From: Candidatus Bruticola sp.
GTDB taxonomy: Bacteria; Vulcanimicrobiota; Xenobia; Xenobiales; Xenobiaceae
DNA length: 64,000 nt
Reading direction: 5' to 3'
NCBI GenBank assembly: GCA_051874735.1
Contig: JBJEGD010000026.1
Coordinates: 91,452 to 155,451, forward strand
Below are positions 23,197-59,079 of this stretch, piece by piece (position 1 is the first letter of the stretch; each line of letters begins with the position of its first letter). The position numbers and the translations under genes were made by a program. The notes under the pieces were generated by a model. That model saw only the letters and a program-made list of their open reading frames with translations, did not search any database and was not told the origin of the DNA.

Positions 23197-23227
23197 ATAA
23201 AAAAAGAGCCCCCCTTCAGGGGAGCTC
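23197..23227 (-). terminator. rho-independent terminator of small-protein gene A
   Basis: gagcccccc ttca ggggagctc, followed on the minus strand by T9. Confidence 0.7.
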
Positions 23228-23253
23228 CCTATTAGTTAGCCGCTAACTACAGA

Positions 23254-23526
23254 CTAGCTGCGAATGTACTCATCCCACTTGCCAAACATCTTGTCCTGGG
23301 TTTTGGCGCGGTTCACAGTTACATCCTGCTGGATCTCGAAGATCTTAGTCTGGGTGTCCTGGAGGATTTTCCAGCGTTCCATCTGCTGCTTCTGAGCATC
23401 GGCCTGCATCTGGGTGTAAATAGTTTGCGCCTGCTGAAGGTCACTGGCAGTCATTTGAGCTGCGGACGCTGCGGCTGCGAAACCGCCACCACCTAAAAAG
23501 TTACTTATACCACCGAAAATACCCAT
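23254..23526 (-). CDS. 90-aa Gly-rich N-terminus / Gln-rich helical protein, paralogue A
   Basis: ATG at 23526 lies 8 nt after GGAGG; the track start at 23541 lies inside the RBS. Residues 17-90 are identical to paralogue B. Confidence 0.75.
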   Translation of the reverse strand: MGIFGGISNFLGGGGFAAAASAAQMTASDLQQAQTIYTQMQADAQKQQMERWKILQDTQTKIFEIQQDVTVNRAKTQDKMFGKWDEYIRS

Positions 23527-23730
23527 TGTACTTACCTCCATAAGGTAAAATTTTTTTTCTTGCCCCTAGTATCACGTGTACAATTAAAAAAGTAAAGACT
23601 TCTTATAGAAAAAATAATTTTTTTATATATTTGATAAAAATATTAAAACAATAGATAAATATCAGATTAAGAAGCAGAAACAGCTAAGTCCACGTCTTTG
23701 CTGATGCCTGGCAAATTTCATTTAAATATA

Positions 23731-23765
23731 AAATGTGCTCCCGTCCTAAGGGCGGGAGCACATTT
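23731..23765. terminator. strong hairpin terminator after paralogue B (T-runs on both strands)
   Basis: aaatgtgctcccg pairs with cgggagcacattt, a 13-bp stem. Confidence 0.75.
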
Positions 23766-23798
23766 TTTCAGTTATTCTTAAACGTTTGAAAGATCAAA

Positions 23799-24071
23799 CT
23801 AACTGCGGATGTACTCATCCCACTTGCCGAACATCTTGTCCTGGGTTTTAGCGCGGTTAACGGTCACATCTTGTTGAATTTCGAAAATCTTAGTCTGGGT
23901 GTCCTGGAGGATTTTCCAGCGTTCCATCTGCTGCTTCTGGGCGTCGGCCTGCATCTGGGTGTAAATAGTCTGGGCTTGCTGAAGATCACTGGCTGTCATT
24001 TGAGCTGCAGACGCTGCGGCAGCATAGCCTCCTCCGCTGAACATACTGGTTAAATTGCTTAGAATACTCAT
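23799..24071 (-). CDS. 90-aa Gly-rich N-terminus / Gln-rich helical protein, paralogue B
   Basis: The ATG lies 10 nt after GGAGG. It has its own terminator. Confidence 0.75.
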   Translation of the reverse strand: MSILSNLTSMFSGGGYAAAASAAQMTASDLQQAQTIYTQMQADAQKQQMERWKILQDTQTKIFEIQQDVTVNRAKTQDKMFGKWDEYIRS

Positions 24072-24204
24072 ATTTTATTTACCTCCATAGGAGAAAAAAA
24101 TTTATTTATTTGATAATATTATCAGCTTATTTTTATCTGTAGTAAATGGATATTTATTTAAGGATAATAAAGCAAAACTAATGAATTCATTAATATAAAC
24201 AAGC

Positions 24205-24247
24205 AAAGAAAAACTGCCCCCAAACTTCGTTAAGGAGAGAGGGCAGT
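24205..24247 (-). terminator. terminator of paralogue C
   Basis: actgccc pairs with gggcagt around a partly paired loop. On the minus strand the stem is followed by ttttcttt. Confidence 0.6.
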
Positions 24248-24328
24248 CTATCTTAGATTTATCCTATATGGTAGAGATAAATTTTACGCTTAAACCTAGA
24301 AGCGATTCTGTCAGTTAGTTCCTTTTGA

Positions 24329-24601
24329 CTAGCTGCGGATGTATTCATCCCATTTACTGAACATTTGGTCCTGGGTTTTAGCGCGGTTAACGGTAACATC
24401 TTGTTGAATTTCGAAAATCTTAGTCTGGGTGTCCTGAAGAATCTGCCAGCGTTCCATCTGCTGTTTCTGGGCGTCAGCCTGCATCTGGGTGTAAATAGTT
24501 TGGGCTTGCTGAAGGTCACTGGCTGTCATTTGAGCTGCAGACGCTGCGGAAGCATAGCCTCCTCCGCTGAACATACTGGTTAAATTGCTAAGAATACTCA
24601 T
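24329..24601 (-). CDS. 90-aa Gly-rich N-terminus / Gln-rich helical protein, paralogue C
   Basis: ATG at 24601 lies 8 nt after GGAGG. It has 4 amino-acid differences from B over the region I aligned (codons 2-75 counting back from the stop). Confidence 0.75.
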   Translation of the reverse strand: MSILSNLTSMFSGGGYASAASAAQMTASDLQQAQTIYTQMQADAQKQQMERWQILQDTQTKIFEIQQDVTVNRAKTQDQMFSKWDEYIRS

Positions 24602-24853
24602 AGTGTTTGCCTCCATTAATAAGAGTTTCAGAGCTTTCTCTTATTGAAATTATCAGGGCAACAAAATAGCGCGTAAATATAGAAAGAATAGAGTTAAATA
24701 AGGTACAAGTTAGAGATAATTAAAAAATTAAAAACAAATTTAAAAAGACTGTTTTTAGTATAAAATCTATAAAAATATTGTAAACAAGAGATTAAATTAA
24801 AGGTTAATAATTTAGTTAAAAAGAGCGTAATTTGAAACTAGTGACCATTATTT

Positions 24854-26269
24854 TCATACATCGTTATTTTTTATTTCAAAACAGGCTAAGCGTCCATCTT
24901 TGCTGATTATATAAAGGTTATTGCCGCCTATAACTAGAGGACAGAAGGGAACGAAAGGAAGCTGATATTCTTTTTTTATACGTCCAGTTTCAGCATCTAA
25001 AACCAGCAGAGCCTTTTGTTCAGTTGCTGCTAAAACATTGCCGTTCCAATATAAAGCTGGAGAGGCCGGCGTTCCCGGTATTTTGCAGCTCCAAAGCAGA
25101 CGGCCGCTTAGAGAAGACAGAGATATTATTCTGCTATCTTTTTTTACTACAAAACAGCGCGGTTTCTTGAAATCGAAACTGGGAGCGCCGATAAAATATC
25201 CTTCAGAATTAACTTGGTAAATGTTATTATTGGGCAGCGATGACTTCCAGATTAACTTAGCGTGCAAATAGTTTTTGCCACTATCTGTAGAATTTAATGC
25301 ATAGCAGAAAACGGTTCCGTCCATGGCTGTAAAATACAGTAAATCTTTGATGAGGCGAACGGGACTGCGGAATTCCATATTACTTTTGCCGATAGTTTGC
25401 TGATAGACTTTTTCTGTATTTTGCAGATCTACGATCCATAATTGGCCGTCTAAAGTAACGGCGCATAATAATTCCTTTTGGTAAGTGCATATAACTGTTG
25501 GGGTGCTAACAAAAAGTTTGTTTTGCAGGCTACCGCATTTGAGCAAATTCCAGTTGGGTTTTGCTCCTTGGTCGTCAACTTGGGTGATTATGCCGTCTCC
25601 GGATAAGCAGACGATACCGTTTTTGCTAAAACAAGGTGAACTATAGGCTAATCTGGGCAAAGAACCCAAATTCAGCCGCAGTAGCTGATTTTTAAAACGT
25701 CTGTATTCAGCTTTGCGTTTTGCGTTGGATAAAGCAGCAGCTATGCCTGTTTCTCCTGTATGTTCAGTTTTTTTCTTATTAAAATCAATCAGATGATCAT
25801 ATGGAAAAGGTAATATCCAAGAATTTACTTCCCCACTAATAGCTTTTAATCTCACAATAGAACAATCTTTAGTAGTCAAAGTGAGGGTATTGTCAGAAAA
25901 AAGAGGTGGAGCTGCTGCAGGGGCTGGTAACTGAAAGTTCCACAATAATAAGCCGCTAGCTGTATCGTAGGAAGATACACGTTTGGTAAACGCAGAGCCT
26001 ACGCAAAGCATCTGGTTATTTACTCGCATCCAGTTAGGAACTGCTTGAAAATTAGCTTCCCAAAGTGGCACAGAGGTTATATAAAATTTACCATAAGCAG
26101 AGTTAATGTTTGGCTTGTCTGCCTTATCACCTTCTGAACTTGCTGATGAAGTTTTAACTGCAGAATCAGGCTCATCTGTAATCGGTGCTGCTTGCAGAGG
26201 AATCTGACATAAGTATAGAGATGCCAGCAGCGGAAATATATGTAAATAACTAGGCTTGGTAAACATCAT
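24854..26269 (-). CDS. PQQ-like beta-propeller repeat protein (BamB-like), secreted
   Basis: Recurrent propeller-like motifs (SGLLLWNFQLP, LSGRLLWSCKIPG, VLDAETGRIKKEYQLP). Starting at Met20 gives a signal peptide (MMFTKPSYLHIFPLLASLYLCQIPLQA). The gene is divergent from bamA. The start is uncertain (26326 or 26269). Confidence 0.6.
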   Translation of the reverse strand: MMFTKPSYLHIFPLLASLYLCQIPLQAAPITDEPDSAVKTSSASSEGDKADKPNINSAYGKFYITSVPLWEANFQAVPNWMRVNNQMLCVGSAFTKRVSSYDTASGLLLWNFQLPAPAAAPPLFSDNTLTLTTKDCSIVRLKAISGEVNSWILPFPYDHLIDFNKKKTEHTGETGIAAALSNAKRKAEYRRFKNQLLRLNLGSLPRLAYSSPCFSKNGIVCLSGDGIITQVDDQGAKPNWNLLKCGSLQNKLFVSTPTVICTYQKELLCAVTLDGQLWIVDLQNTEKVYQQTIGKSNMEFRSPVRLIKDLLYFTAMDGTVFCYALNSTDSGKNYLHAKLIWKSSLPNNNIYQVNSEGYFIGAPSFDFKKPRCFVVKKDSRIISLSSLSGRLLWSCKIPGTPASPALYWNGNVLAATEQKALLVLDAETGRIKKEYQLPFVPFCPLVIGGNNLYIISKDGRLACFEIKNNDV

Positions 26270-26339
26270 CTGCTTGTTGGGTTCTTTCTGTTCCAGCCTG
26301 ATCCTTGCTGAAGGGCAATTTCGCATGTTAACTACTGTA

Positions 26340-26886: not shown

Positions 26887-29800
26887 ATGAGGAATGCACT
26901 CGGACATGTCTTGTCAGCAGCAGTGCTTGTAGGTAGTTTTGGGGCTTCAGTTCCTGCCTTTGCAGATAGTCCATCCGGAAATGCTGCGGTCAATACTGCT
27001 GAGCCTTTACCGGCTGCAGTAAATATGGGATTCAGCTTGGAAGCCGATTCTGCGGCTGCTCCCTACGTACATGGTTCTCAGACATCCTCTTTAACTAGTC
27101 AGACTGACAGTTGCGAGTACGTTCAGCCGCATATAATTCAGTTGGTAGCGACTGATAAAGGAGACACTGAGCTGGTTGATTCTGCGGCGATTGCTAGCGG
27201 TGCGGCAAACAGTAGCTGTTCGACTAGTGAACTTAGCACTTCAGAGAAAGATGCTACAGTTTCAACGTCTTCGGCTGTTTCTGCAGATGAGAGCAAAACT
27301 ATAAAAACAAAAACTAAGAGCTCAACTTCCGAACTAAAAAAAAGTAAAGCTAGGCTAAATAAGAGCAGAGCTGCGCGGCGTAAGAATAAAGTTAATTCTA
27401 CCGCCTTGGGAAAGCATTCTAGCCCTGAAAAGGTTGAATCTGCTGTTGCTAATTCTGATAATGGTGCGGTGGCAATAGATAGCAGCGAACCCATAAAAAG
27501 TAAGACTGAGTTTTCCGCTGAACTGTCAGATAAAACGGATCATGTTCAGACTTCCTCCAGCAGTGAACCTGCTGTCGAGGCTAAAGCCGCTTCTTCTGTT
27601 GAGCAAGAGTCTGTGCCAGTATCTACGTACTCCGCCAGCAAAAACAACGGTGATAACGTTTCTTCCGCTCTTGAAGAGAATAGCGCTGCTGCAGAACAAA
27701 AAGTTGCTCCTGCCGCCGATGAAACAAAAAGCCAGGTGGCAGATGAGGGTACGAAAAAGGCTGCAGCTTCGATCTCTCCTATTTTTAGCGGTACGGTTGA
27801 GGCTATAACTGATTCATCTTTGCGTATTTTCGGTATAGGTGCCAATGGTGAACCGCTTAGCCTCGATTTTATTGTCGATGCTAATAGTCAGATGGCTGAG
27901 GGGATAAAAATAGGCGACAGTTTATCTGTTTATTATGAAGTTTCTGAAAGCGGTGGTTTCAGAGTAACTTCGGCTAGGTATCTATCAGGTGAAGCTCCCA
28001 AGAATGTTTTCCCCGGAGATATCCCTTCTGAACTGCTCGACAATAATGATGTAACTGCAAAAGACGAGACTGATACTACCAACGAAGCGGATATACCTAA
28101 GGTCGTCAGTATTGAGGTTGAGGGCAATAAAACCGTTTCTTCAGAGGAAATACTGCAGATTATTTCCACCCGTATCGGTGACCCTTTGTTAGAACCGCGT
28201 ATCCGCCGCGATATGCAGGCTATCTACGACAGTGGATATTACACTGATGTACGTTTAGATACACGCTACACTTCAGATGGCGTCCGTGTGATCTTCCGGG
28301 TTTTGGAAAATCCTGTAGTTGATGAAATAGCTATCGAGGGTAATAGCGTAGTCCCTAGCGAAAAGCTTCGCTCTCTTATGCAACTTGAAACGGGTAAAGT
28401 GCTCAATACTCGTACTTTGCAAAATGATCTACAATCAATCAACAAATATTACAACGAAGATTTAGGCTATACTATTAGTCCTTCCCACGTTACCAAACTC
28501 GATTTTAATAGCGGTAAACTTACGTTTACCTTAGTTGATGGCATTGTAGTTAAAGAAGTTAAGGTTGAGGGGGTTACCGTTTTCCCTCAAGACCAGATCG
28601 CTTCTATGATCACGCTCAAGCCGGGCGATCTGTTTAATCGTAATACTCTGCGCGATGATACAGAAAAAATTTCTGCTCTCTACGATGAAAAACAGTACAT
28701 ATTAGATACTATTAAACCTTCGGTTGATGTCGAAACTGGTGTAGTTACGGTCAGTGTTGTTGAAGCCGTACTTCAGGAAATTAAGCTGGCTTGGACTGGC
28801 ACTAGTGCTACTAAGCACCGTACCAAAGACGACACTGTGCTGCGCAATATCCGTACTAAGCCTGGCGAGGTGATGCGTCGCGATCGCATACAAAAAGATT
28901 TGGAACGTCTTAATAACTTAGGTCTTTTCAAAAAAGTAGAGCCTGAGGTCGAGCCGGGATCTGCGCCAGGTCAAGCCGTTTTAGTTTTAAATATTGAAGA
29001 ACAGAAAACTGGTTTAGCTACGGTCGGTGTCGGTTATGCTGGAGGCGGATCGGGAGCTGTTCGCCCTGGTATAACTGGAGCGATTTCTTATTCTGAGCGC
29101 AACTTATTCGGAGAAGGTAAGCAGTTTTCCATAAACTTGCAGCGAGGTGCTCAGATCGGTGCGTATAGTATTTCTTATTACGATCCAGCCATTAACTCTG
29201 CTCAAGATTCTATTGGCGTATCTGCTTACTATAACAGCGTAGACGACTTGGAACAGCAGGTGACCGGAGCTGATTATGGCACTTACGCTTATTACGATCA
29301 GGAAGTGTACGGCGCCACTGTTACTTACGGCCATCCTTTCTCCGATGACCTTCGCGGTTTTGTCACTTTGCGTCATGAAACTATAAATTTAACTATGTCT
29401 GGTAAATCTCTGTATGTACCAGTTGGCTTGGGTAAAGGTGATTTGAACGCTATTGGTTTGTCTACTTTATATGACACTCGCGATGACGTCTTCAGCCCTC
29501 ACAAAGGTAGTTATGCTAATGTGGCCCTTACTTTTGCTGGTTTTGGGGGAGACTATAGTTACAATAAATTTGTTGTAGAAGGACGCCACTATGTGCCCTT
29601 AACTAAGCGATCTACTTTGGCTTTGCGCGGTATGTACGGAACTGTGGGCAATGGGGCTCCCGCGTCTGAATATTTTTATGCTGGCGGTACTGACACTTTG
29701 CGTGGCTATCAAGATAACTCAATGTTCGGAAACAAAGTTGTCCTTCTGAATGCTGAATACCGTTTCCCCATTGGAAATATTAAGATGCTCAGCGGCGCTG

Positions 29801-29979
29801 TGTTTGTTGACGCCGGCAATGCCTGGATCTCCGGCTACAAGTCGAGTGAACTGTATACCGATGCTGGTGTTGGTCTGCGCATAGTATTTCCTAACCTCGG
29901 TTTGGGTGTTATTCGTATCGATTATGCTTTCGGCAAAGATGGATCCCGCTCCAGTATAGGTATAGGTCAGTCATTCTAG
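26887..29979 (+). CDS. bamA: outer membrane protein assembly factor BamA (Omp85) with an about 400-aa low-complexity N-terminal extension
   Basis: GGAGG RBS and a signal peptide. POTRA-like units begin IEVEGNKTV, IAIEGNSVV, VKVEGVTVF and IKLAWTG. The C-terminal barrel has RGY, VFVDAGNAW and a terminal GIGQSF (C-terminal Phe). Confidence 0.9.
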   Translation: MRNALGHVLSAAVLVGSFGASVPAFADSPSGNAAVNTAEPLPAAVNMGFSLEADSAAAPYVHGSQTSSLTSQTDSCEYVQPHIIQLVATDKGDTELVDSAAIASGAANSSCSTSELSTSEKDATVSTSSAVSADESKTIKTKTKSSTSELKKSKARLNKSRAARRKNKVNSTALGKHSSPEKVESAVANSDNGAVAIDSSEPIKSKTEFSAELSDKTDHVQTSSSSEPAVEAKAASSVEQESVPVSTYSASKNNGDNVSSALEENSAAAEQKVAPAADETKSQVADEGTKKAAASISPIFSGTVEAITDSSLRIFGIGANGEPLSLDFIVDANSQMAEGIKIGDSLSVYYEVSESGGFRVTSARYLSGEAPKNVFPGDIPSELLDNNDVTAKDETDTTNEADIPKVVSIEVEGNKTVSSEEILQIISTRIGDPLLEPRIRRDMQAIYDSGYYTDVRLDTRYTSDGVRVIFRVLENPVVDEIAIEGNSVVPSEKLRSLMQLETGKVLNTRTLQNDLQSINKYYNEDLGYTISPSHVTKLDFNSGKLTFTLVDGIVVKEVKVEGVTVFPQDQIASMITLKPGDLFNRNTLRDDTEKISALYDEKQYILDTIKPSVDVETGVVTVSVVEAVLQEIKLAWTGTSATKHRTKDDTVLRNIRTKPGEVMRRDRIQKDLERLNNLGLFKKVEPEVEPGSAPGQAVLVLNIEEQKTGLATVGVGYAGGGSGAVRPGITGAISYSERNLFGEGKQFSINLQRGAQIGAYSISYYDPAINSAQDSIGVSAYYNSVDDLEQQVTGADYGTYAYYDQEVYGATVTYGHPFSDDLRGFVTLRHETINLTMSGKSLYVPVGLGKGDLNAIGLSTLYDTRDDVFSPHKGSYANVALTFAGFGGDYSYNKFVVEGRHYVPLTKRSTLALRGMYGTVGNGAPASEYFYAGGTDTLRGYQDNSMFGNKVVLLNAEYRFPIGNIKMLSGAVFVDAGNAWISGYKSSELYTDAGVGLRIVFPNLGLGVIRIDYAFGKDGSRSSIGIGQSF

Positions 29980-30175
29980 TTGCTAGGGAGCTACGCTTAT
30001 AGAGCATTCGAAAAAGTTGAGCGGGTGGGCATCTCTAATAGTTGTAGCTCTCTTTTGGGGGGAATTTACGAAAACGTGAAATGCCGCGTTCTGCCGACAT
30101 TTTTTTTGGGTAAAAATGAGCGGCGCAGTTGCTATTTATAGTTTGTTGGAACCCTTAAAGGAGGTTCAAGTTTAA

Positions 30176-31171
30176 ATGTCTGAAGTCAATTTGAGTAAAT
30201 CTGCTGACAACACTGCAGATGAAGCTGTTAGTGAGTCAGCTACTCCTTCTGGCGGAAACAAGAAAATTGTTGGCGTAGTTGTTGCTGTAGCTGTTTTAAT
30301 AATTATCGGTATTGGAACTTGGATGTTCCTCAGTCCTAGCGGTATGATGTCTTCTCCTGCTAAAAAAGTAGGCTGTATAGACGCTTCAGCTATTTATGCT
30401 CTCGATGAGTTTAAAAACGCTGAAAAGCAGATCGCTGATTTTGCTGAAGCTAAAAACAAAGAATTTGAAAAAGCTGTCAGTGAAAAAAATGGAAAAGAAG
30501 GTTCTGAGACTGAGCTCCAGCTGCTTTATAACAAGCTTCAAGGTGAAGTTGAGGTTAACCGTAACAAAATTATTCTTCCTTTGAATAATCGTGTCTCTGC
30601 AGCTATCGCTTCCGTATCTGCTGGAAAAGGGCTTAATGTAGTCCTGGATAAGCGCGTAGTCGTATGTGGAGTTCCCGATATCACTGAAGATGTAAAAAAA
30701 CTTTTTCAACAAAAAGGCGAGCTGAAAGTTCCTTCTGAGGAAGATACTAGCGATTCTCCGGTGGCTTATTTCGATCAGGGAATAGTTCGCAAATTGAAAG
30801 TGTTCGGTGAAGTTGATATCCGCTTGAGTCAAGCCCGCGCTGACATGATGCGTGAGTATGAGAAAAAAGCTCCCAGTCTTTCAGCTTCAGAGCGTGAGGC
30901 CCTGCAGCGTGAGATGTCCGCTCGTTTTGAGGCTATTAGTCAGCAACAGTATGCTCCTCTCTATCAGAAGGTCAATAATTCTGTAAATAAAGTTGCCAAA
31001 GATTTAGGCATTTCGCTGGTACTGAACAAACAGACTGTGATGTACGGCGGGCGCAATATTACTGATGAAGTTATTGATACTTTTAATGCTAGTCTGAACA
31101 CAGATTCATCTTCTGCTGAAGCTGCAGACAGCAAAGCTGCAGACTCTAAGAATACTGAAGCTGCTAAGTAA
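30176..31171 (+). CDS. membrane-anchored protein with two Skp/OmpH-like halves
   Basis: AAGGAGG RBS and TM segment IVGVVVAVAVLIIIGIGTWMFL. There are two units, each ending with ...GLNVVLDKRVVVCGVPDITEDV or ...GISLVLNKQTVMYGGRNITDEVI, the typical OmpH C-terminal pattern. Confidence 0.65.
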   Translation: MSEVNLSKSADNTADEAVSESATPSGGNKKIVGVVVAVAVLIIIGIGTWMFLSPSGMMSSPAKKVGCIDASAIYALDEFKNAEKQIADFAEAKNKEFEKAVSEKNGKEGSETELQLLYNKLQGEVEVNRNKIILPLNNRVSAAIASVSAGKGLNVVLDKRVVVCGVPDITEDVKKLFQQKGELKVPSEEDTSDSPVAYFDQGIVRKLKVFGEVDIRLSQARADMMREYEKKAPSLSASEREALQREMSARFEAISQQQYAPLYQKVNNSVNKVAKDLGISLVLNKQTVMYGGRNITDEVIDTFNASLNTDSSSAEAADSKAADSKNTEAAK

Positions 31172-31184
31172 TTGAGGTGTTTTT

Positions 31185-32624
31185 ATGCAGTTTTTTTCTG
31201 TCCCTAAATTCAAAAGTACAGGCGTATGGCTGGGGGTCGGCAGCATTCTAGTCGGCGCCGCTGTGGCTGTTCAAGTAGGCTTAGCTGAGGTTGCCTGTGC
31301 TGAAGGGACTGAGCCGAAAAAATCTGCTGCTCTTGATAAGGCTGATGATAAGTTCACTGAGTTAGCTGTAGTTGACTTCGATAAGCTGTTGAAAGATCGT
31401 CCCGATTATGAGCGCATCAATCAACTCGATGAACAGATTCGTTTACTGCAACAGGAACTAGATTTTTTGCCTTTAGCTGACCACAGGCGTAAAGTAGATT
31501 CTGGACGTAAACGTATGGAACGCGAGGTTGAAAAGGCTCGCAATGAACTTCAAGCTGAGTCTGAGCGTATTGGACGGGAATTGAAAAATTTTCGCAATGC
31601 ACTTTCTTCTCAGCTTGAACGGGAAAGTAAAGCTCTCAATGAACATTACCAAAATGTTTTACGTCAGCGTATTGCCGCTCTGACTCCCAAAGCTCAGCCG
31701 CAGGTTCCTGAAGATGTTCGCAAGCGTATGGATAGTTTCCTTAGCGATTTGGCTGGAGTGCGTCAGCAGCGACTCTCTGCTAAGCGTTTAGAACTTGAGC
31801 GCCTTATGCAGAATAATTTGGAAAGTGCCAGAGCTTCCATGGATGAGCGCTTAGCAGCCTACGACAATTCTCTTATGGAAGAGAATCAAGCGCAGCGCGT
31901 TAATCTTCAGCTTCAGTTGCAAACGGCAGCTAATGCTGAAGAAGAGTCGTCCATTCAAGATAAGCTGAGTGCTTTGAGTGATGAAGAAACGGCTAAAAAA
32001 GCGGCCAAACGCGATGAACTTAGTGCTGAGTATCAAGCGCTTGAAGCTTCAGAGAGAGCTAATGTTAACTCAAAAATGAAAGCTTTTGAAGATTCTTTAG
32101 ATAAGGAAACTTCTGCTAAAGCGGCTGCTGAACGGGAACGTCTCTTAAAGACGGTGTCAGTTCCTTCTCCCCAGGCTAACAAAGCTGATATTGAGGCCCA
32201 GATCGAAAAGATTAAGGCGACTATCAACGCTGAAATGGAAGCGAAGAAGGCTTCCATGACGGCGGCCATGCAGCAAAAGGCTGAGGAAGCCCAGCGCAAT
32301 ATGGAAAAAAAGCAGGCTGAACTAGAAAAGCGTCTCATGGCCACTCAGAAGCAGCTTGAAGCGATGGTTAAAAATTCCCAAAATGATGTCAGCGATGAAA
32401 CTCGCAAAAAGATGGATGACATTAAGGCCAAGATAGAAGATCTGCAGAAACAGCGCACTGAATTGCACGATTCCATGGCGGCTGATCTGCGCAAGGTTAT
32501 CAGTAAGATAGCTGCAGAGCAGGAAGGGCAGCCTTCTGTAATAGGAACTTATGTAATGAATATTGACTGTTTGGATCTTACCGACAAGACTATGATCGCT
32601 TTGGAGAAAGAGGACCAGCATTAG
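31185..32624 (+). CDS. 479-aa coiled-coil protein with Skp/OmpH-like termini
   Basis: N-terminal hydrophobic segment. An OmpH-like start (LAVVDFDKLLKDRPDYERI) and end (VIGTYVMNIDCLDLTDKTM) are separated by about 380 aa of heptad-rich E/K/Q/A sequence. Confidence 0.55.
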   Translation: MQFFSVPKFKSTGVWLGVGSILVGAAVAVQVGLAEVACAEGTEPKKSAALDKADDKFTELAVVDFDKLLKDRPDYERINQLDEQIRLLQQELDFLPLADHRRKVDSGRKRMEREVEKARNELQAESERIGRELKNFRNALSSQLERESKALNEHYQNVLRQRIAALTPKAQPQVPEDVRKRMDSFLSDLAGVRQQRLSAKRLELERLMQNNLESARASMDERLAAYDNSLMEENQAQRVNLQLQLQTAANAEEESSIQDKLSALSDEETAKKAAKRDELSAEYQALEASERANVNSKMKAFEDSLDKETSAKAAAERERLLKTVSVPSPQANKADIEAQIEKIKATINAEMEAKKASMTAAMQQKAEEAQRNMEKKQAELEKRLMATQKQLEAMVKNSQNDVSDETRKKMDDIKAKIEDLQKQRTELHDSMAADLRKVISKIAAEQEGQPSVIGTYVMNIDCLDLTDKTMIALEKEDQH

Positions 32625-32633
32625 GAGGTCGCA

Positions 32634-33194
32634 GTGAAGAGAATTTTTTGGTGCGGAGCAGTTTGTGCGTTACTCACTGTCGGTGTTTTGTTGGCGTCAG
32701 GATGCAATACCCAGAATCAAAAAGCTATTATTCGCACTGGAACTATAAATAGCACTGTGGTGCTTCAGCAGGATGACAAGTATCAAGAATTATCGCGTCA
32801 GTACTTCGCTGAGCGCGTTAAAGCCAGTCAAGAAGTGCAGCGAATCGTCAAAGAAAATTCTGATGCCAACGGTGTTGTGAGTGATAAGTCTATTTATGAT
32901 AAGCTTATGAAAATTCAGAACGATGTAGAATCGAAGTGGCAGAAACGCACCGCCGACTATATAGATGCTAAAATGAAGAGTATGGAAGAAGCTGCTCAGA
33001 AGGTTGCAGTGGACAGCAAGCTCGATATCATTTTAATCGATTCCGATGATGTACCTACTGTAGAGTATGGCGGCCACGACGTTACAGCTAATGTTCTAGC
33101 TGCTATGCCCGGGTTCGCTGGCAAGTCTGAAGCTGAAAGTACTAGTGCTGAGACTGCAGCTGATTCTAAGCAGCCTGTGAATAACAGCAAATAG
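32634..33194 (+). CDS. Skp/OmpH-like lipoprotein
   Basis: GTG follows AGGAGG. Lipobox LLASGC. It has a coiled-coil middle and an LDIILIDSDDVPTVEYGGHDVTANVL end. Confidence 0.6.
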   Translation: MKRIFWCGAVCALLTVGVLLASGCNTQNQKAIIRTGTINSTVVLQQDDKYQELSRQYFAERVKASQEVQRIVKENSDANGVVSDKSIYDKLMKIQNDVESKWQKRTADYIDAKMKSMEEAAQKVAVDSKLDIILIDSDDVPTVEYGGHDVTANVLAAMPGFAGKSEAESTSAETAADSKQPVNNSK

Positions 33195-33214
33195 AAATGC
33201 GGAGGATAAACAGG

Positions 33215-33688
33215 TTGAAGCATTCAAAGTTTATTAACTGTTTGATTTTAACGGCTGTAGGCGCCGCTCTGCTGCTGTCAGGGGGAGGATGCGCTAAGCG
33301 TTCACTTAAAGTAGGGGTGGTTAATACTGAGAGAATTATCAGGGAAAATCCCAAGTACATGGAATTGAATGTGGTTTTGTCTGATGAGCGGAACAAGTTG
33401 TTCTCGCAAATTCCCAGTAATGTCAACAGCATGTCTGGAGCACAAAAGAAAGCTTTGCAGGAAAAATTAGCTAAAGAGGCTGCTGAGCGTTCCAGTAAAT
33501 TTGACAAGCTTTACAATGAAAGCATGAAAAGCCTGCGTGAAGATATAAAAAAACAGGCTTCAGAAGTTGCTAAAGATAAAAATATCGACTTAGTGGTAGT
33601 TAATACCATAAATTATCCAGTAGTGCTTTATACCAGCGGCGATAATGTCACTTTAGATATTCTTCTCAAAATGGACGGAGCAAAATAA
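33215..33688 (+). CDS. Skp/OmpH-family lipoprotein
   Basis: TTG at 33215 lies 9 nt after GGAGG; the track ATG at 33197 has no RBS. Lipobox LLLSGGGC. It has KVGVVNTERIIRENPKY ... KNIDLVVVNTINYPVVLYTSGDNVTLDIL, a classical OmpH pattern. Confidence 0.75.
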   Translation: MKHSKFINCLILTAVGAALLLSGGGCAKRSLKVGVVNTERIIRENPKYMELNVVLSDERNKLFSQIPSNVNSMSGAQKKALQEKLAKEAAERSSKFDKLYNESMKSLREDIKKQASEVAKDKNIDLVVVNTINYPVVLYTSGDNVTLDILLKMDGAK

Positions 33689-34402
33689 ATGGAACAGGGA
33701 CTCATACATACTAGCGCTTGTATTGATGTCTTCGCCTCTCTTGGAGAGGGATGCCGAGTCGGAGCTATGGCTGTTATTGAAAGTGGAGCCCAAATTGGCT
33801 GCGGAGCTGAAATCGGTCCTAAAGTTTATATCGGACGCAACGTTTCTATCGGTGAAAGAGCTGTTATAAAGTGCGGTGCTGTTATTATGGATGGCGTTGT
33901 TGTTGGCAGAGAAGCGGTAGTCGAGTCGGGGGCTGTTTTGGGAATGGATGGCTTTGGATATGTTTTTGACGGACAAAGCCATCGTAAAATTCAGCAAATA
34001 GGCAATGTTGTCATTGGGCAGGGAGCGAAAATTGGCGCTTGTTCCTGTATAGACAGGGCCGCTTCTGCTTCAACGGTCGTTGGCGATCATACTGAAATAG
34101 GTCATATGGTGATGGTCGGTCATAACAGCAAGATTGGCAGCGGGTGTCGCATTGGTGATCAGAGCGGTTTAACTGGTTCCTCTCTGGTCGGTAACGATTG
34201 TATCATCGGCTCTCAGTGTGGTATAGGTGTGCGTGTTGAACTTGGCGATGGCTGTGTGTTGCTAGATCGAGCCACGGCTATGCGCAAATATGAGCCTGGG
34301 CAGGTTCTGGCCGGACATCCAGGACGACCGGTGGCGGAGGTTCGCCGTGCAGAAGCGGCTTTTAATTTGCTGCCTAAACTTTTAAAAGATTATATTGAGT
34401 AG
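33689..34402 (+). CDS. lpxD: UDP-3-O-acylglucosamine N-acyltransferase, short form (LbH plus C-terminal helix only)
   Basis: It aligns without gaps to the E. coli LpxD catalytic region: IDRAASASTVVGDHTEIGHMVMVGHNSKIG...LTGSS versus [30 protein letters not shown]...MAGSL. The His of the HN motif is present. At 237 aa it has no room for the about 100-aa N-terminal domain, because the upstream gene ends at 33688. Confidence 0.75.
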   Translation: MEQGLIHTSACIDVFASLGEGCRVGAMAVIESGAQIGCGAEIGPKVYIGRNVSIGERAVIKCGAVIMDGVVVGREAVVESGAVLGMDGFGYVFDGQSHRKIQQIGNVVIGQGAKIGACSCIDRAASASTVVGDHTEIGHMVMVGHNSKIGSGCRIGDQSGLTGSSLVGNDCIIGSQCGIGVRVELGDGCVLLDRATAMRKYEPGQVLAGHPGRPVAEVRRAEAAFNLLPKLLKDYIE

Positions 34403-34406
34403 TTCG

Positions 34407-34448
34407 TACCGGTCTTGGGGGCGGTTTTCTAGTCGGGAAGACCGGTAG
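34407..34448 (+). terminator. hairpin after short lpxD (weak T tail)
   Basis: taccggtctt pairs with aagaccggta, a 10-bp stem with a 22-nt loop. Confidence 0.45.
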
Positions 34449-34613
34449 ATCTTGTTGTTAGGGCAGATTCGGAGCAACTCATTTCCATTTTATCAATATT
34501 TATGTCAAGGCGCCTCAATTAGTCTGCAGTTTTGAAATTTGCAGCAGCACAGTTTAGGGCGCTATTTTTCTGTGTAACGCAGAGAGCGATGAATCTGTCG
34601 GAGTTGGGTTTTT

Positions 34614-36458
34614 ATGAGAAAATATAATTTATGGGCCTTAATTTTGGCTTTTGTAGTCTTTTATTCCGCTGCTCTGTCATCTGCCTGGGCTGCTGATGTA
34701 ATGCTGGGAGGCCAGGTTATCTTTCGTATAAATGATGAGGATCAAGCAAAAAAAATATCCCAAAAAATTGAAGCTATGTTGCAGAGGGGGGCTTCTTCGT
34801 CTTCAATTAAAGTCGTACGTAAAGATATTGCTGTAGCCTCGGAGGGGCAAGATAAGCAAGATAAAGATGAAGGTAGCAAGGGAGGGGCTAAAGCGAAAAA
34901 ATCTGTTTATAAAATATTTTGGGGAAGTGAATTAGTCATTGAAGTGAATGACGAAATTGCCAAGCAGAATGCTTCTTCTCCAGAAGCTTTAGCTAATTTA
35001 TGGGCCTCCAATATGCGCAATGTCGTCGATATTGGCCTGTTGAATGTTGATGTTGCTAGAGTCGTTTTACCTATAGAGGCTGATAAGGTTATTTACGCTT
35101 CTGGTTTGGCAACCGGTCCTTTGAGTGCTGAAGAGACTTCAGGTATCGTTGATATTGATATCGATCAGGAAAACGGCCTTATTAAGATAAAAGGGCGCAG
35201 GGTTGGAAAGTCGTCTATCGTTATTAGCAAAGGGGTTGCCTCCGTTTCCGTTTTTGTGCAGGTGAAAGATTGGGCCGGCAAACTTCCTCAGACGGTTAAT
35301 GTTGAAGTAACTGGCAATCCTGCACAGATTGATGACGTTTCCCAGGCGGTTATGCTTTCCATAGCGGCTAATACTTTCGTTCAGCCAGGCTGCAGTGTTT
35401 ATGTTGATGATTCCAACTTTAAACCGATTCCGGTGAGTAAAGGCGACAGTATGCGCTTAAGCGTGCCTGTGGGTATAAATGCTTCGGAAGATTATTTTGC
35501 GCTTCGCGGCAATGTTAATGTTGTAGTTAGCAATATAGAAGCTCCTGTAGTTGAGCAGAATCTGCTTCTAGTCAGCAATCGGCCGGAGCGTGTCAGCACA
35601 GATGGAGTATTAATGAAGTATAACTTCAAGAGACGTGAGCCCAGTCGTCTTATGTTCTCCCATCTTAATGCTTCCGAAAAGAATCGTTATTTGTGGATAA
35701 ATTTAGCTAATTTAAATGACGAACCGATAAAGATTGTTATCAGTCGCACTTCTGCTGGACCTGAGCGCAGCGAAATTTATGTCGGCCAAACGGCTGCCAA
35801 GCGCTTTTTAGAAAATTTGGCCAGTCGTTCCGGCTATATCATTACTCTTCCGCCCAATTCTGCTTTAGAGCTCTGTTCTTATGTGATGCGTCCTGAAGCT
35901 TTGGTAAGTGGATTTATAAATTTCCAAATTTTGGAAGGTACTAGCGCGACCGTTGAAGTGCGCAGTTCATTAAATCCTAATGCTAACGATGGACGTCCTC
36001 TGCCAGAAATAGGGGCCCCTTTTAATCCTTTCAAAATACATCCTCACGGAGTTTTTGCTCAGCCTTATTTTGAAAATGAAGGTGAATTTGTTATAGGTGG
36101 CAGTCCTTTAACTTTTCGTTATGGTGAGAGTCCTTGGCTGATTGATTTTGAAACTGGGCTGCCCAACACTGGCAATTTCGGGGTTTTGTATAAATCTTTG
36201 GTAGAATTAAAAAATCCTACTAAGCGTACAAAAACTGTGGGACTTTACTTTACGCCTTTGTCCGGCCCTGGCGGTGCTAACTTCCTGATAGGCAATTCTG
36301 TTTATCAGGCAGTTTTCCGCAAAAAAGGTGATGAAGTACTTGTAGCTAAAATCGAACTCTCGCCAGAGTCTAGCAGTATAATTGAAATTGTCACTTTACC
36401 TGAGGCGACTTCCTGTTATCCTGCCCAGTATGAATTGCGTGAACTGGACGGGCGCTGA
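34614..36458 (+). CDS. secreted 614-aa protein of unknown function
   Basis: Signal peptide MRKYNLWALILAFVVFYSAALSSAWA. It has its own terminator. No family recognised. Confidence 0.7.
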   Translation: MRKYNLWALILAFVVFYSAALSSAWAADVMLGGQVIFRINDEDQAKKISQKIEAMLQRGASSSSIKVVRKDIAVASEGQDKQDKDEGSKGGAKAKKSVYKIFWGSELVIEVNDEIAKQNASSPEALANLWASNMRNVVDIGLLNVDVARVVLPIEADKVIYASGLATGPLSAEETSGIVDIDIDQENGLIKIKGRRVGKSSIVISKGVASVSVFVQVKDWAGKLPQTVNVEVTGNPAQIDDVSQAVMLSIAANTFVQPGCSVYVDDSNFKPIPVSKGDSMRLSVPVGINASEDYFALRGNVNVVVSNIEAPVVEQNLLLVSNRPERVSTDGVLMKYNFKRREPSRLMFSHLNASEKNRYLWINLANLNDEPIKIVISRTSAGPERSEIYVGQTAAKRFLENLASRSGYIITLPPNSALELCSYVMRPEALVSGFINFQILEGTSATVEVRSSLNPNANDGRPLPEIGAPFNPFKIHPHGVFAQPYFENEGEFVIGGSPLTFRYGESPWLIDFETGLPNTGNFGVLYKSLVELKNPTKRTKTVGLYFTPLSGPGGANFLIGNSVYQAVFRKKGDEVLVAKIELSPESSSIIEIVTLPEATSCYPAQYELRELDGR

Positions 36459-36493
36459 CATTTTATGAAGATTATATAAAAATAATATCTAAA

Positions 36494-36531
36494 GCCCGTT
36501 CTGCCGTTGAGGCGGCTCACGGGTTTTTTTT
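36494..36531 (+). terminator. rho-independent terminator
   Basis: gcccgt..(gccg/cggc inner stem)..acgggt followed by T8. Confidence 0.8.
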
Positions 36532-36660
36532 GATATAAATTATGGCGTCAGCATGCTTCTCTAGTGCGATGGAACGATAAATATGGAGGAATAGCGGAGA
36601 AAATATAAAAAAGCGCCGTAGCTTTTTTTCTTTATTTTTTATTAAATTCGGAGTATTTTC

Positions 36661-37500
36661 ATGTGCAGAGCGCAGCGTACTTTGGCGAAAGAAGTTTCCT
36701 TCGAAGGAGTAGGGATTCATACTGGGAGAGCGAGTCACCTAACTATTAAGCCGGCTCCTGTCGATCACGGTCTCGTTTTTCTTAGTTCTGGAGAGTATAT
36801 CCCTGCTACCTATGAGTACGTTATTTCTACAAAGCGCTCTACAACGATTGGTAAGGGACAGGTCGCGGTAAATACTATCGAGCATTTAATGGCCGCTTTT
36901 GGAGGTCTTTCTGTGGATAATGCTCTTATAGAGATAGAAGGGCCGGAAGTTCCTATTTTAGACGGTTCTGCTTTGCCTTTTTGTCAGGCTATGGAAGAAG
37001 CAGGTATAGTTAATATCAAAGGCAGTGAAGTAGAAGATTATTATCTGAGCGAGCCCATTTTTGCTGCAGAAGGGGACAGTTTAGTTTTGGCTATGCCCGA
37101 TTCCCAATATAATCTTGAAGGAGCTGTCAGCTACAACAGTCCTCAAGTAGGTATTCAGCGATATCGTTACTGCGGATATGACAACTTTGTGACTCATATA
37201 GCTCCTGCTCGTACTTTTGGTTTTTGGTCTGAGGTAAAAACTCTCTTAGAAAACGGATTAGGGCAAGGTGGCGATCTGTCTAATGCTTTAATTTATGATC
37301 GTCCTGGTTTTAATGCTGCAGAAAATCAGCGTTTTGTCAATGAACCGGTGCGTCACAAAATTTTAGATTTAGCTGGTGATATTTGTCTGTTAGGTCGTCC
37401 GCTGTGTGCTTTTGTTTTGGCCGTTCGGGCTGGTCATAAATTGCATGTAGAATTCGTTCGCAAAATCGCTGAGGAGATGAAAAAAAATGCTGAATACTAA
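36661..37500 (+). CDS. lpxC: UDP-3-O-acyl-GlcNAc deacetylase
   Basis: RTLAKEVSFEGVGIHTG, TIEHLMAA, EVPILDGSA and HKILDLAGD motifs. Confidence 0.9.
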   Translation: MCRAQRTLAKEVSFEGVGIHTGRASHLTIKPAPVDHGLVFLSSGEYIPATYEYVISTKRSTTIGKGQVAVNTIEHLMAAFGGLSVDNALIEIEGPEVPILDGSALPFCQAMEEAGIVNIKGSEVEDYYLSEPIFAAEGDSLVLAMPDSQYNLEGAVSYNSPQVGIQRYRYCGYDNFVTHIAPARTFGFWSEVKTLLENGLGQGGDLSNALIYDRPGFNAAENQRFVNEPVRHKILDLAGDICLLGRPLCAFVLAVRAGHKLHVEFVRKIAEEMKKNAEY

Positions 37501-37912
37501 AGATATATTGCACAGGATTAATTACAAAAGTCCTCTTTTTTTTGTTGATATTGTTAACGAGTTAGAGTTTCCTAAAATCTCTGGTTATAAAAATGTGACT
37601 ATGAGCGAGCCCCATTTCGCTGGACATTTCCCAGGCAAACCCATTATGCCTGGAGTACTACAAATGGAAGCTTTGGTACAGATTTGCCGACTTCTCTATA
37701 TAGGGAATGAAGAGGCTCCTATTAAAGTAAAAGAGCTCGATTTAGTTGGAGTTAAAAAATTTAAGTTTAGAACTCCTGTTGTTCCAGGAGATCGCCTCGA
37801 TCTTTATGCTGAAGAAATTGAGCGTAACAACGAAAATATAGTGCTATCTGTTAAAGCTTGCGTTGGAGATAATGTCGCTTGTGAAGGAATACTTTCTTTC
37901 AGTTGGCAATAA
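37487..37912 (+). CDS. fabZ: 3-hydroxyacyl-ACP dehydratase
   Basis: HFPGKPIMPGVLQMEAL motif. It overlaps lpxC by 14 nt. GAGGAG RBS. Confidence 0.9.
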   Translation: MLNTKDILHRINYKSPLFFVDIVNELEFPKISGYKNVTMSEPHFAGHFPGKPIMPGVLQMEALVQICRLLYIGNEEAPIKVKELDLVGVKKFKFRTPVVPGDRLDLYAEEIERNNENIVLSVKACVGDNVACEGILSFSWQ

Positions 37913-38028
37913 AAGGCGAACGCACGACCGTTTGCGGCTAGCTGTAGGAAATTTGCCATATACAGACGAAATTATAAACCGTTTTGTGTTCGCTTTTGCA
38001 TAGAGACAAAAATTGGAGGATAAGCATT

Positions 38029-38967
38029 ATGAAGCCGATTAAAGTTGGCGTGGTCGGCATTGGTAGTATGGGGAAAAACCATGCTCGAGTGTGCGCCGAA
38101 CTACCTCAAATTGAACTTACAGGCATGGTGGATCTCGATGAAGCCAGAGTCGCCCCTTTAGCTCAGCAGTACGGCACACAGTATTATAAAGATTATAAGA
38201 GTCTCTATGGCAAAATCGACGCTGTAGTTATTGTTGCACCTACACCGCTTCACTATCAAATCGCTCAAGATTTTTTGGAACAGGGCGTTCATGTCTTGGT
38301 AGAAAAGCCCATTACTGTAGAGGTAAGCGAGGCTAAACGGTTAGTGACTTCCGCTAAGGAAAAAAATCTTGTTCTGCAGGTAGGTCATTTGGAGCGTTTC
38401 AATCCAGCCGTAATAAAGCTTAAGCAGATGGTGAGCAAACCTGTGTTAATAGAATGCCACCGCCTTTCTGGGCCTACTACTCGCAGTCTCGATGTCGGTA
38501 TTATTTGGGATTTAATGATCCACGATTTTGATATACTTCTCAGTTTATATAAATCTCCAGTAGCCGAAATCCATGCTATGGGGACTTCTATCTATTCTAA
38601 ATTTGAAGATGTAGCTCACGTGCAAATGCGGTTTGAATGTGGGGCTGTAGCCAGTTTGGTAGCTAGTCGCAATTCCGGAGAAAGGAAGCGCAGTCTCAAA
38701 ATTACTGAAGATACCGGACGAGTTTTGTCTCTCGATTTTATTAACCAAACTTTAGTTATTTCTCGTCCTGGCCCCGATGGGCGTCCCCTAGATTTGGAGC
38801 CAGTTCACATCGAGAAAGAGGAACCTCTACGTTTGGAACTCAGCAATTTTGCAGATTGTGTGATTAATCACAAGGAACCTGTTGTATCCGGTGAGGATGG
38901 CAAGCGAGCTTTGGAATTAGCTGTTCACGTTTTGGAGAATATGCAAAAAATTACGCTTTCTAAGTAA
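38029..38967 (+). CDS. Gfo/Idh/MocA-family NAD(P)-dependent oxidoreductase (GnnA-like position)
   Basis: ATG at 38029 follows GGAGG. Rossmann N-terminus IKVGVVGIGSMGKNHA and an EKP motif (LVEKPIT). It lies between fabZ and lpxA. Confidence 0.85.
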   Translation: MKPIKVGVVGIGSMGKNHARVCAELPQIELTGMVDLDEARVAPLAQQYGTQYYKDYKSLYGKIDAVVIVAPTPLHYQIAQDFLEQGVHVLVEKPITVEVSEAKRLVTSAKEKNLVLQVGHLERFNPAVIKLKQMVSKPVLIECHRLSGPTTRSLDVGIIWDLMIHDFDILLSLYKSPVAEIHAMGTSIYSKFEDVAHVQMRFECGAVASLVASRNSGERKRSLKITEDTGRVLSLDFINQTLVISRPGPDGRPLDLEPVHIEKEEPLRLELSNFADCVINHKEPVVSGEDGKRALELAVHVLENMQKITLSK

Positions 38968-39017
38968 AGCAGCAATAAAAATTTTTCCGCTTAAAGTACA
39001 GAGAGGAGAGCCAAGAG

Positions 39018-39827: not shown

Positions 39828-39838
39828 TTGGTGCAGCT

Positions 39839-58869: not shown

Positions 58870-59079
58870 AAAAGGGAAGGAACTAAAATCCTTTTTTTTT
58901 GATTAGTTTTCCTTCTTTAGGTTGACTTCTGACTGGACTGTGGTGATAATTGAAGCAAGGAATTAGAAGGGTTGGCGGAACTCAATCGAGTGTTGAAGCC
59001 AACTCGGAGGTGGCTGCGCTGCTTAGTGAGTCGCTGTAAGGGTGGCGTTGGCTTAAGTCTTCAGATGGTTGAGGGTCAG

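Follow-up and report, generated by a model that had tools for sequence, protein, structure and literature searches.

Why should a bacterium keep three tandem, monocistronic genes for nearly the same 90-amino-acid (aa) protein, and what might such a protein do? The question is raised by a stretch of 64,000 nucleotides (hereafter the window) of a metagenome-assembled genome (MAG) of Candidatus Bruticola (Bruticola Ji et al. 2021, as given in Candidatus List No. 6). The host belongs to the class Xenobia of the phylum Eremiobacterota. Xenobia are uncultured and their assemblies derive from animal and human gut, rumen, sediment and bioreactor samples. We use S for the 90-aa protein of the three copies (A, B and C) and for its free-standing family. 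S is a real gene family under extreme constraint, almost certainly expressed at a very high level, with an obligate neighbour gene, here called hyp105. Across the class, S is linked to the 3' end of an operon for flagellar-type type III export, and its mobile domain also serves exported and injected proteins of other phyla. Our preferred reading, which is tentative and which we place a little short of an even chance, is that S is abundant and chaperoned, leaves the cell by a non-Sec route as a late substrate of the flagellar-type apparatus for export, and probably self-assembles. The features of the array are as follows.

23254..23526, minus strand: coding sequence of copy A, 90 aa (MGIFGG...KWDEYIRS), from the open reading frame (ORF) list and translation; match to the family hidden Markov model (HMM) at E 1.6e-46; G+C content at third codon positions (GC3) 0.63
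23799..24071, minus strand: coding sequence of copy B, 90 aa (MSILSN...KWDEYIRS), from the ORF list and translation
24329..24601, minus strand: coding sequence of copy C, 90 aa, four residues unlike B, from the ORF list and the family HMM
23535..23539, minus strand: GGAGG ribosome-binding site of copy A, read from the sequence and tied to the copy B site by repeat D4
24082..24086, minus strand: GGAGG ribosome-binding site of copy B, read from the sequence and by repeat comparison
24610..24614, minus strand: GGAGG ribosome-binding site of copy C, read from the sequence
23569..23596, minus strand: promoter-like motif of copy A, TTTACT-N17-GATACT, from a motif scan
24118..24146, minus strand: promoter-like motif of copy B, TTTACT-N17-GATAAT, from a motif scan
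24649..24677, minus strand: promoter-like motif of copy C, TTTACG-N17-GATAAT, from a motif scan
23203..23230, minus strand: intrinsic terminator after copy A, a 10-bp GC-rich stem followed by U7
23730..23766, minus strand: intrinsic terminator after copy B, a stem of about 16 bp followed by a U-run (z-score -8; repeat I1)
24206..24254, minus strand: terminator-like hairpin after copy C, GACUGCCCUCUC...GGGGGCAGU followed by U5

Copies A and B differ by 21 synonymous and no non-synonymous changes over codons 17 to 90, exactly as an earlier reading of this DNA (the sequence-only reading) had counted. The synonymous divergence (dS) is 0.81 and the non-synonymous divergence (dN) is 0 by the Nei-Gojobori method (NG86). 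With a synonymous-site fraction of 0.19, the chance under neutrality that 21 of 21 differences would be synonymous is about 8e-16. The first 16 residues of A and B are unlike, and copy C departs from B at four residues (A18S, K53Q, K79Q and G82S; dS about 0.4); both had been described correctly. Because the intergenic DNA is unrecognisably diverged and the synonymous differences are scattered along the genes, purifying selection, rather than a recent duplication or a blanket conversion of the genes, keeps the S copies identical. The strict purifying selection claimed earlier is thus upheld by a formal dN/dS computation, and it is seen in six more genomes. Tandem arrays in these genomes (L025, L026, L027, L028, L029 and L043) have no amino acid changes in the last 60 codons at a dS of 0.14 to 0.55, and the pattern of identical proteins with many synonymous changes recurs independently in them.

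Each of the three genes is monocistronic, with GGAGG 8 to 10 nt 5' of the ATG and a hairpin with a U-run at the 3' side. The description of three minus-strand genes about 540 bp apart, each with its own ribosome-binding site and hairpin terminator, is borne out, with start-to-start distances of 545 and 530 nt. The 90-aa lengths assume the second ATG as the start; longer ORFs of 95 aa begin at 23541 and 24616. The shorter reading is likely because the ATG of the longer ORFs falls inside the ribosome-binding site. The repeated unit is the 275-nt coding sequence only, with 84-93% identity between copies, and the DNA between the copies has diverged beyond recognition. The sequence-only reading had taken the upstream spacers to be unrelated. 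This needs correction, since all three share the motif TTTAC(T/G)-N17-GATA(A/C)T, which lay inside the window and was missed. The motif occurs four times in the 64 kb where 1.55 occurrences are expected, and three of the four precede S genes. The same motif is found 5' of S homologues in genomes of 64% GC, and the conserved -10 stretch is longer than GATAAT. A sigma-28 (FliA-like) reading, TTTAC-N15-(G/C)(C/G)TGATAA, was rejected, because the motif has TTGAC/TTTAC as its -35 element and the arrangement -35/N17/-10 GATAAT. The fourth occurrence (TTGACT-N17-GATAAT at 58922) precedes an orphan ORF of about 370-400 aa (58922-60177), which is Ser/Asn/Gln/Gly-rich and has a charge-poor N-terminus (MVEGQMISQQVNNGISIQSLQSG...) and no match among PDB sequences. 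No Rfam family was found in the window.

The codon usage of the S genes is distinct. Their GC3 is 0.53-0.63, against 0.37 +/- 0.05 in 45 other ORFs of the window, and the favoured codons are TTC, AAC, ACC, GAC, ATC and CGC. A strong shift of this kind is the usual signature of very high expression. Together with the near-consensus promoters, the codon bias points to very high expression of S. The earlier proposal of an abundant protein therefore stands in so far as the GC3 shift, the near-consensus promoter, the strong ribosome-binding site and the terminator of each copy speak for it, all of them indirectly. The proposal of a selected gene dosage is plausible, but copy number is not constant. 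It ranges from one to five per assembly, with at most four in tandem, and from one to three among relatives at the syntenic site between a BamB-like gene and fabI.

The products of copies A and B each have a 100% identical counterpart among the hypothetical proteins annotated in a MAG of Candidatus Bruticola sp. (for B, P0001). A word-indexed search returned 273 S clusters, mostly of 77-79 aa, and those with names are all from Xenobia, Eremiobacterota or unclassified MAGs. Taxonomic labels of MAGs may err, and some Xenobia-like contigs are labelled Burkholderiales or Bacillota. Scans of genome collections for S used two conserved peptide patterns. S is absent from every curated family library searched: there was nothing above threshold in NCBIfam or PHROGs and nothing above the cut-off in Pfam. 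A profile search of PDB sequences gave noise only (CcdA at E 0.7, a viral envelope heptad at E 1.9). The statement that no family is recognisable thus withstood searches of Pfam, NCBIfam, PDB and PHROGs, and no Cys or Sec-type signal peptide can be read in the 90-aa proteins, again as had been said. A phage origin was rejected; S has no PHROGs match and no relative among IMG/VR viral contigs. Literature searches on Eremiobacterota, Xenobia, UBP9 and Bruticola together with flagella turned up no description of S or of Xenobia flagella.

An alignment of the family consists of a variable N-terminal segment and a conserved C-terminal half. Of 23 consecutive positions (57-79), 22 are at least 90% conserved, and therefore every face of the helix described below is constrained. 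The N-terminal segment averages 18 aa (range 7-39) and is rich in Ala, Met, Ser, Gln, Gly and Asn. Charged residues make up 1.3% of it against 28% of the remainder, and in 105 of 118 sequences the segment is free of them. A comparison of Bruticola (44% GC) with a lineage of 64% GC gives 93% identity for the last 45 residues of S, whereas the same pair shows identities of 82% for FlhA, 75% for FliP, 74% for FlhB, 45% for hyp105 and 30% for L, a protein encoded after S. S is more conserved than FlhA across the class. Because of this, and because there are up to five codon-optimised copies, S is likely to be among the most abundant proteins of Xenobia cells. An AlphaFold2 (AF2) model from a 51-sequence alignment is one long helix (residues 3-89), with a predicted local distance difference test (pLDDT) score of 82-88 only over residues 50-80 or so and of only 52-59 in the N-terminal half. 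The helical nature proposed earlier is predicted again, with confidence in the C-terminal half only.

The link to export comes from a fourth S paralogue in the genome of the window (P0112, 92 aa), which shares the locus-tag prefix ACI376 with P0001 and P0002. It lies (locus L005) in the order flgE-like-fliM-fliN-fliN-fliO-fliP-fliQ-fliR-flhB-flhA, then hyp105 (103 aa), S, and two further genes termed M (269 aa) and L (247 aa). Upstream in the Bruticola clade are flgC-fliE-fliF, an IS605-type insertion, and fliG-fliH-fliI-fliJ-SLT-fliK, which lead into the flgE-like gene. The order from the flgE-like gene to L is also found in distant Xenobia lineages whose FlhA is 72-82% identical; these often have a class III aminotransferase inserted before hyp105, and one to three S copies. 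Contexts were read within 10 kb on either side of anchor genes. A census of 41 species-representative assemblies (GTDB scan) found free-standing S in 36. A copy lies directly after flhA in 24 of these. In six the contig is cut off but synteny with M, L, a Zn-ribbon and a LolA-like gene is present, three have hyp105-S without flagellar neighbours, and three, which are fragmentary, show neither context. In JBFWNU01, one of the three with hyp105 only, a single 3.95-Mb contig carries the unlinked S loci together with FlhA and the entire fliH-to-flhA operon.

Some features of the Xenobia flagellar operon (L095 1-10900; L117 1-10000; L119 1-12109) are recorded in their own right. The fliJ and fliK genes are separated by one for an SLT lytic transglycosylase, and a single FlgE/F/G-like gene of 271-273 aa follows fliK. 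The genes flgD, fliL, cheY, flhF and flhG, which hold set positions in Bacillus-type fla operons, are missing at those positions. The insertion between fliF and fliG is a truncated IS605 OrfB / TnpB-like ORF (L095 3097-3618, a Bruticola-clade contig). A 991-aa protein with a match to Tubulin_2 (PF13809) is encoded at L117 17301-20276, about 7 kb 3' of the flagellar/S locus on a 3.0-Mb Eremiobacterota contig.

Wherever the hyp105 gene occurs (34 loci, among them the non-flagellar L026, L036, L068 and L116), it lies directly 5' of S. Its lineage-restricted product has 85-130 aa, an isoelectric point of 4.2-4.7 and the invariant motif G-L..(E)EM...FNRMY...W ... E.V..AARDG ... ENN(E/K)K (for example L005 9492-9803 and L008 9600-9923). 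It has no match in the family libraries. AF2 models it as a helical hairpin whose acidic tail is disordered (pLDDT 84.5). In size, charge and predicted fold class hyp105 matches type III export chaperones, and we infer a chaperone role.

M (129-295 aa) and L (215-533 aa) are orphan proteins, both encoded after S in the flagellar locus (L005 10344-11153 and 11573-12316; L008 10762-11232 and 11399-12202; L025 10764-12164; L027 10349-11950). Each has a long low-complexity or disordered N-terminal part rich in Pro, Gly and Ser, and a divergent S-like C-terminal domain. The N-terminus of L (M..INTN.., then D-x-V-x-L-S) resembles FlgM and flagellin by eye only, without profile support. L thus starts like FlgM by eye and ends in an S-like domain, and S itself has the size of FlgM and stands last in the flagellar operon or close to it, all of which would suit a FlgM-like secreted regulator (an anti-sigma factor or checkpoint) of the flagellar system. 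We consider such a regulator very improbable. Pfam FlgM (PF04316) matches neither S nor, even at E <= 1, the L proteins, and NCBIfam gives nothing either. Regulators are not normally found in three to five codon-optimised copies with strong promoters of their own, and the conservation of S exceeds that of FlhA.

The preferred reading, export through the flagellar apparatus, can be set out as a series of steps. Gene structure, selection, conservation, synteny, the partner gene and the expression signals are observed; export, the chaperone role and self-assembly are proposed. In the cytoplasm, S would be held by its dedicated acidic helical-hairpin partner hyp105. It would then be passed to the flagellar-type type III apparatus (FlhA/FlhB/FliPQR) as a major late substrate and would exit without a Sec signal, with the variable uncharged N-terminal segment serving as the export signal. 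Outside the cell, the invariant C-terminal helix would pack on other S copies and on the C-terminal domains of M and L, and the product would be a homo-oligomer or filament-like polymer. The three copies of the window would be extra, independently transcribed dosage copies, parallel to the scattered flagellin and pilin multigene sets of other bacteria. The sequence-only reading had proposed a structural or secreted protein; it covered the window alone, so that the flagellar linkage, the partner gene and the wider distribution of the domain were beyond its reach. This fits the linkage to flagellar type III export, the chaperone-like partner and the presence of the domain on secreted or injected proteins elsewhere, although export itself is a deduction.

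Several observations weigh against this reading. The promoter of the S genes looks sigma-70-like in geometry (-35/N17/-10 GATAAT). The AF2 monomer is one straight helix and lacks the helix-turn-helix of needle subunits and of flagellin D0. A clean coiled-coil heptad was sought and rejected, as the best register has only 45% hydrophobic residues at a/d positions; because no register gives a clean hydrophobic core, no oligomeric state is claimed. In sequence and profile searches, similarity to flagellin, to needle proteins, to HrpA and to EspA stayed below every threshold. Flagellin, FlgK/L, FliD, FliS and MotAB are probably present in a lineage that has FliG, FliK and a hook-like protein, and S would then not be "the" filament. 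The fetched loci (within 10 kb of the anchors) gave no canonical flagellin or FlgD, with an unverified Bacillus subtilis Hag sequence as the BLASTP query. Conserved synteny within one class can reflect inherited position rather than shared function. Lastly, the same domain is found on PAAR, VgrG, RHS, double-glycine/PCAT, Sec, autotransporter and cytoplasmic-looking TIR/CHAT proteins, and type III axial proteins are not known to be spread over such varied export routes.

Part of this evidence would suit an abundant intracellular helical protein, associated with the ribosome, nucleoid, membrane or cytoskeleton or acting as a stress hydrophilin, whose position after flhA is inherited gene order. 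The sigma-70 geometry fits such a protein, as does a codon bias like that of highly expressed housekeeping genes. The hyp105-S module stands apart from flagellar genes in L116, L026, L036 and L068, and constraint on all faces of the helix would also fit burial in a large intracellular complex. The array of the window lies amid genes of envelope and lipid synthesis (fabI, BamB-like, BamA, Skp, LpxD/C/A/B), a position kept in the gut clade. We nevertheless regard an intracellular role as unlikely. It leaves unexplained the domain on Sec-, PCAT-, type V- and type VI-exported proteins, the dedicated hairpin partner gene, the charge-free variable N-terminus, and M and L, which with their disordered N-termini and the same C-terminal domain always follow S in the flagellar locus.

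Membership in the established families was also tested by profile. The type III secretion system (T3SS) needle profile PF09392 (SctF) gave no match at E <= 10 for the three window proteins or at E <= 0.1 for 51 members of the family, and the profile search of PDB sequences returned no needle protein. Pfam flagellin (PF00669/PF00700) matched neither the window proteins nor the 51 members. WXG100 (PF06013) likewise has no Pfam match, and S has W52-K-I and W84-D-E in place of W-x-G. The HrpA pilin (PF09589) was rejected: it scored 21.5 bits against a cut-off of 25, with seven of 51 members at E <= 0.1, and NF053530 scored 13.4 against 34. The HrpA_pilin match covers the Ala/Gln-rich, low-complexity N-terminal part and is probably compositional. 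Because every profile-testable feature of membership failed, S appears to be set apart from the needle, pilus and flagellin families.

The domain extends beyond Xenobia. Searched with a profile, 1.84 billion representatives yielded 435 clusters with an S domain of about 60 aa. Counts of domain architecture refer to the best 150 of the 435. Among these, 39 representatives are at most 100 aa long, and the domain ends within five residues of the C-terminus in 117. Fusions confirmed by Pfam include RHS repeats with SLH (P0176), gp5/VgrG (P0161), TIR (P0218), trypsin with TIR and TPR (P0146), CHAT (P0153) and an autotransporter (P0247). Several representatives bear Sec signal peptides or PEP-CTERM tails and some have double-glycine leaders. 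In L083 (Acidobacteriaceae), VgrG and a 172-aa ORF are followed by a protein with a PAAR-like N-terminus (by eye), a Gly/Ala linker and the S domain. In L092 (Blastocatellia), an S-domain peptide with a double-glycine leader is encoded between a PCAT-type ABC exporter and a HlyD-family protein. The C-terminal 44 residues or so in these contexts are approximately 64-70% identical to Xenobia S, by eye. As a separate observation, 22 of the best 150, including one from an Acidobacteriota genome, have the S domain joined to an N-terminal domain of about 95 aa and of unknown function, with the pattern M..V.V.(I/L)SGP.(F/Y)...A...A..L...S(I/V)..L (P0125-P0127, P0131, P0135, P0139, P0141, P0148 and others; L077 9596-10195).

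These architectures suggest another explanation, in which S is a secreted toxin-like or inter-cellular effector, made in Xenobia as a protein of its own and possibly exported by the flagellar apparatus, and the 60-aa domain is a C-terminal module of the polymorphic-toxin type. In such a scheme hyp105 would be a chaperone or an immunity protein, and the high dosage would offset a stoichiometric, non-enzymatic action. The extreme C-terminal placement, the RHS, VgrG, TIR, trypsin, CHAT and autotransporter partners, the layouts in L083 and L092 and the Sec signals or PEP-CTERM tails all favour it. We find it possible yet rather unlikely. The conservation of S is extreme (dN/dS about 0; 93% class-wide), whereas toxin domains usually diversify. 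The window copies and other satellite copies are monocistronic and without an adjacent immunity-like ORF; between and beside the window copies, no ORF of at least 40 aa fit for an immunity gene was found. The RHS fusion has no same-strand gene downstream. No hyp105 homologue is present in the non-Xenobia S-domain loci, and on that ground hyp105 was rejected as the immunity protein of the PAAR/RHS fusions. Polar and with a net charge of about zero, the domain does not have the size of an enzyme, and a stoichiometric inhibitor would be poor type VI cargo. The TIR and CHAT N-termini, which lack a secretion signal, clash with a layout of trafficking domain plus toxin. Placement of the domain behind trafficking domains is found in the distant relatives and not in the window or other free-standing Xenobia S. 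A double-glycine leader in the window proteins was rejected; a GGG is present, the acidic residue and the -7/-12 pattern are absent, and most family members lack any GG. None of the 30 ORFs of the window that were scanned encodes an ABC exporter. The effector scheme and the preferred export reading share a core, namely that S would leave the cell through the flagellar apparatus.

The array is flanked on one side by the BamB-like beta-propeller gene (24854-26326) and on the other by the genes for fabI, a phosphopantetheinyl transferase and a U32 peptidase. The position between the BamB-like gene and fabI is kept in the gut-associated clade, with one to three S copies. Beyond the BamB-like gene are BamA, Skp-like genes, LpxD, LpxC, FabZ, LpxA and LpxB. 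In detail, the region 26887-42286 encodes BamA (1030 aa), three OmpH/Skp-like proteins, an LpxD-like protein, LpxC, FabZ, LpxA and an LpxB of 815 aa that carries a long additional stretch at its C-terminus. Given this block of outer-membrane and lipid A genes, the gene content indicates that this Xenobia lineage is diderm with lipopolysaccharide. Elsewhere in the window (8181-10010) is a gene for a 609-aa protein with a SpoIIIAA-like AAA ATPase region and a C-terminal phosphotyrosine-phosphatase-like domain. Genes of the baeRF family (eRF1-like) adjoin solitary S copies in two unrelated contexts (L009 8695-9897; L011 4101-5300; L001 14839-15987), an adjacency that may be coincidental.

If S is exported by the flagellar apparatus, it would be a type III substrate of a new kind, served by a new chaperone, and it would show a use for the stripped-down Xenobia flagellar cluster, in which no FlgD or flagellin was seen within reach. 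The module of about 60 aa on type VI, RHS, PCAT-secreted, TIR and CHAT proteins is an undescribed mobile domain of bacterial conflict or secretion systems. A wider proposal joins these points. The Xenobia flagellar apparatus would secrete, and perhaps polymerise, a non-flagellin subunit of 78-90 aa that is a single helix and is unrelated to known axial, needle or pilus proteins. M and L would be minor co-assembling proteins and hyp105 a new class of chaperone, and the self-associating domain would have been captured independently by type VI, PCAT, type V and Sec systems and by TIR/CHAT proteins. Taken as a whole, this proposal is speculative and we think it somewhat improbable.

S can finally be compared with known systems. 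The WXG100 pairs (ESAT-6/CFP-10) resemble hyp105-S in that they are two small helical neighbours, the upstream one acidic with a disordered C-terminal tail; they share with S multiple copies, abundance (probable in S) and the lack of a Sec signal. However, S has no W-x-G, its conserved Trp residues being followed by K-I and D-E, and no EssC/EccC-type gene of type VII secretion was seen near any locus. The polymorphic toxin framework was reportedly set out by Zhang, Aravind and colleagues in 2012. As in polymorphic toxins and double-glycine peptides, relatives of the S domain lie at the C-terminus behind PAAR, VgrG, RHS, Sec signals or a double-glycine leader, or within an autotransporter. The window genes, in contrast, are free-standing and hyper-conserved. 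No trafficking domain is recognisable in them and no immunity gene beside them, and a domain so small and polar could be neither an enzyme nor a membrane pore.

The needle and pilus subunits of T3SS (SctF proteins such as PrgI, MxiH and YscF; HrpA; EspA) are like S in their size of about 80-90 aa, their all-helical structure (predicted for S) and the lack of a Sec signal. They also have in common with S a variable N-terminus and a strongly conserved C-terminal helix. They are encoded in a type III cluster with their small helical chaperones (YscE/YscG, PscE/PscG, CesAB); the S paralogue after flhA likewise lies in a cluster for type III export, next to hyp105, a small acidic protein predicted to be helical and a putative chaperone. 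S differs from them in that it has no profile match and no predicted helix-turn-helix, its genes are multicopy and scattered, and its cluster is of the flagellar type (FliG, FliE, FlgC, FliO, FliK) and not that of an injectisome. Flagellins are at least 250 aa long, whereas S has 78-90 aa, no D1 domain, no Flagellin_N or Flagellin_C match and a promoter without clear sigma-28 character. A propulsive supercoiled filament could hardly be built from subunits that are each one straight helix. In other respects the flagellin multigene families with FliS are close to S. They too have several near-identical, separately transcribed and highly expressed copies, some of them beside the cluster and others elsewhere. 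FlgK, FlgL and FliD share only the terminal helical region with FliC, as M and L do with S, and flagellin has a dedicated chaperone in FliS, for which hyp105 is the putative counterpart.

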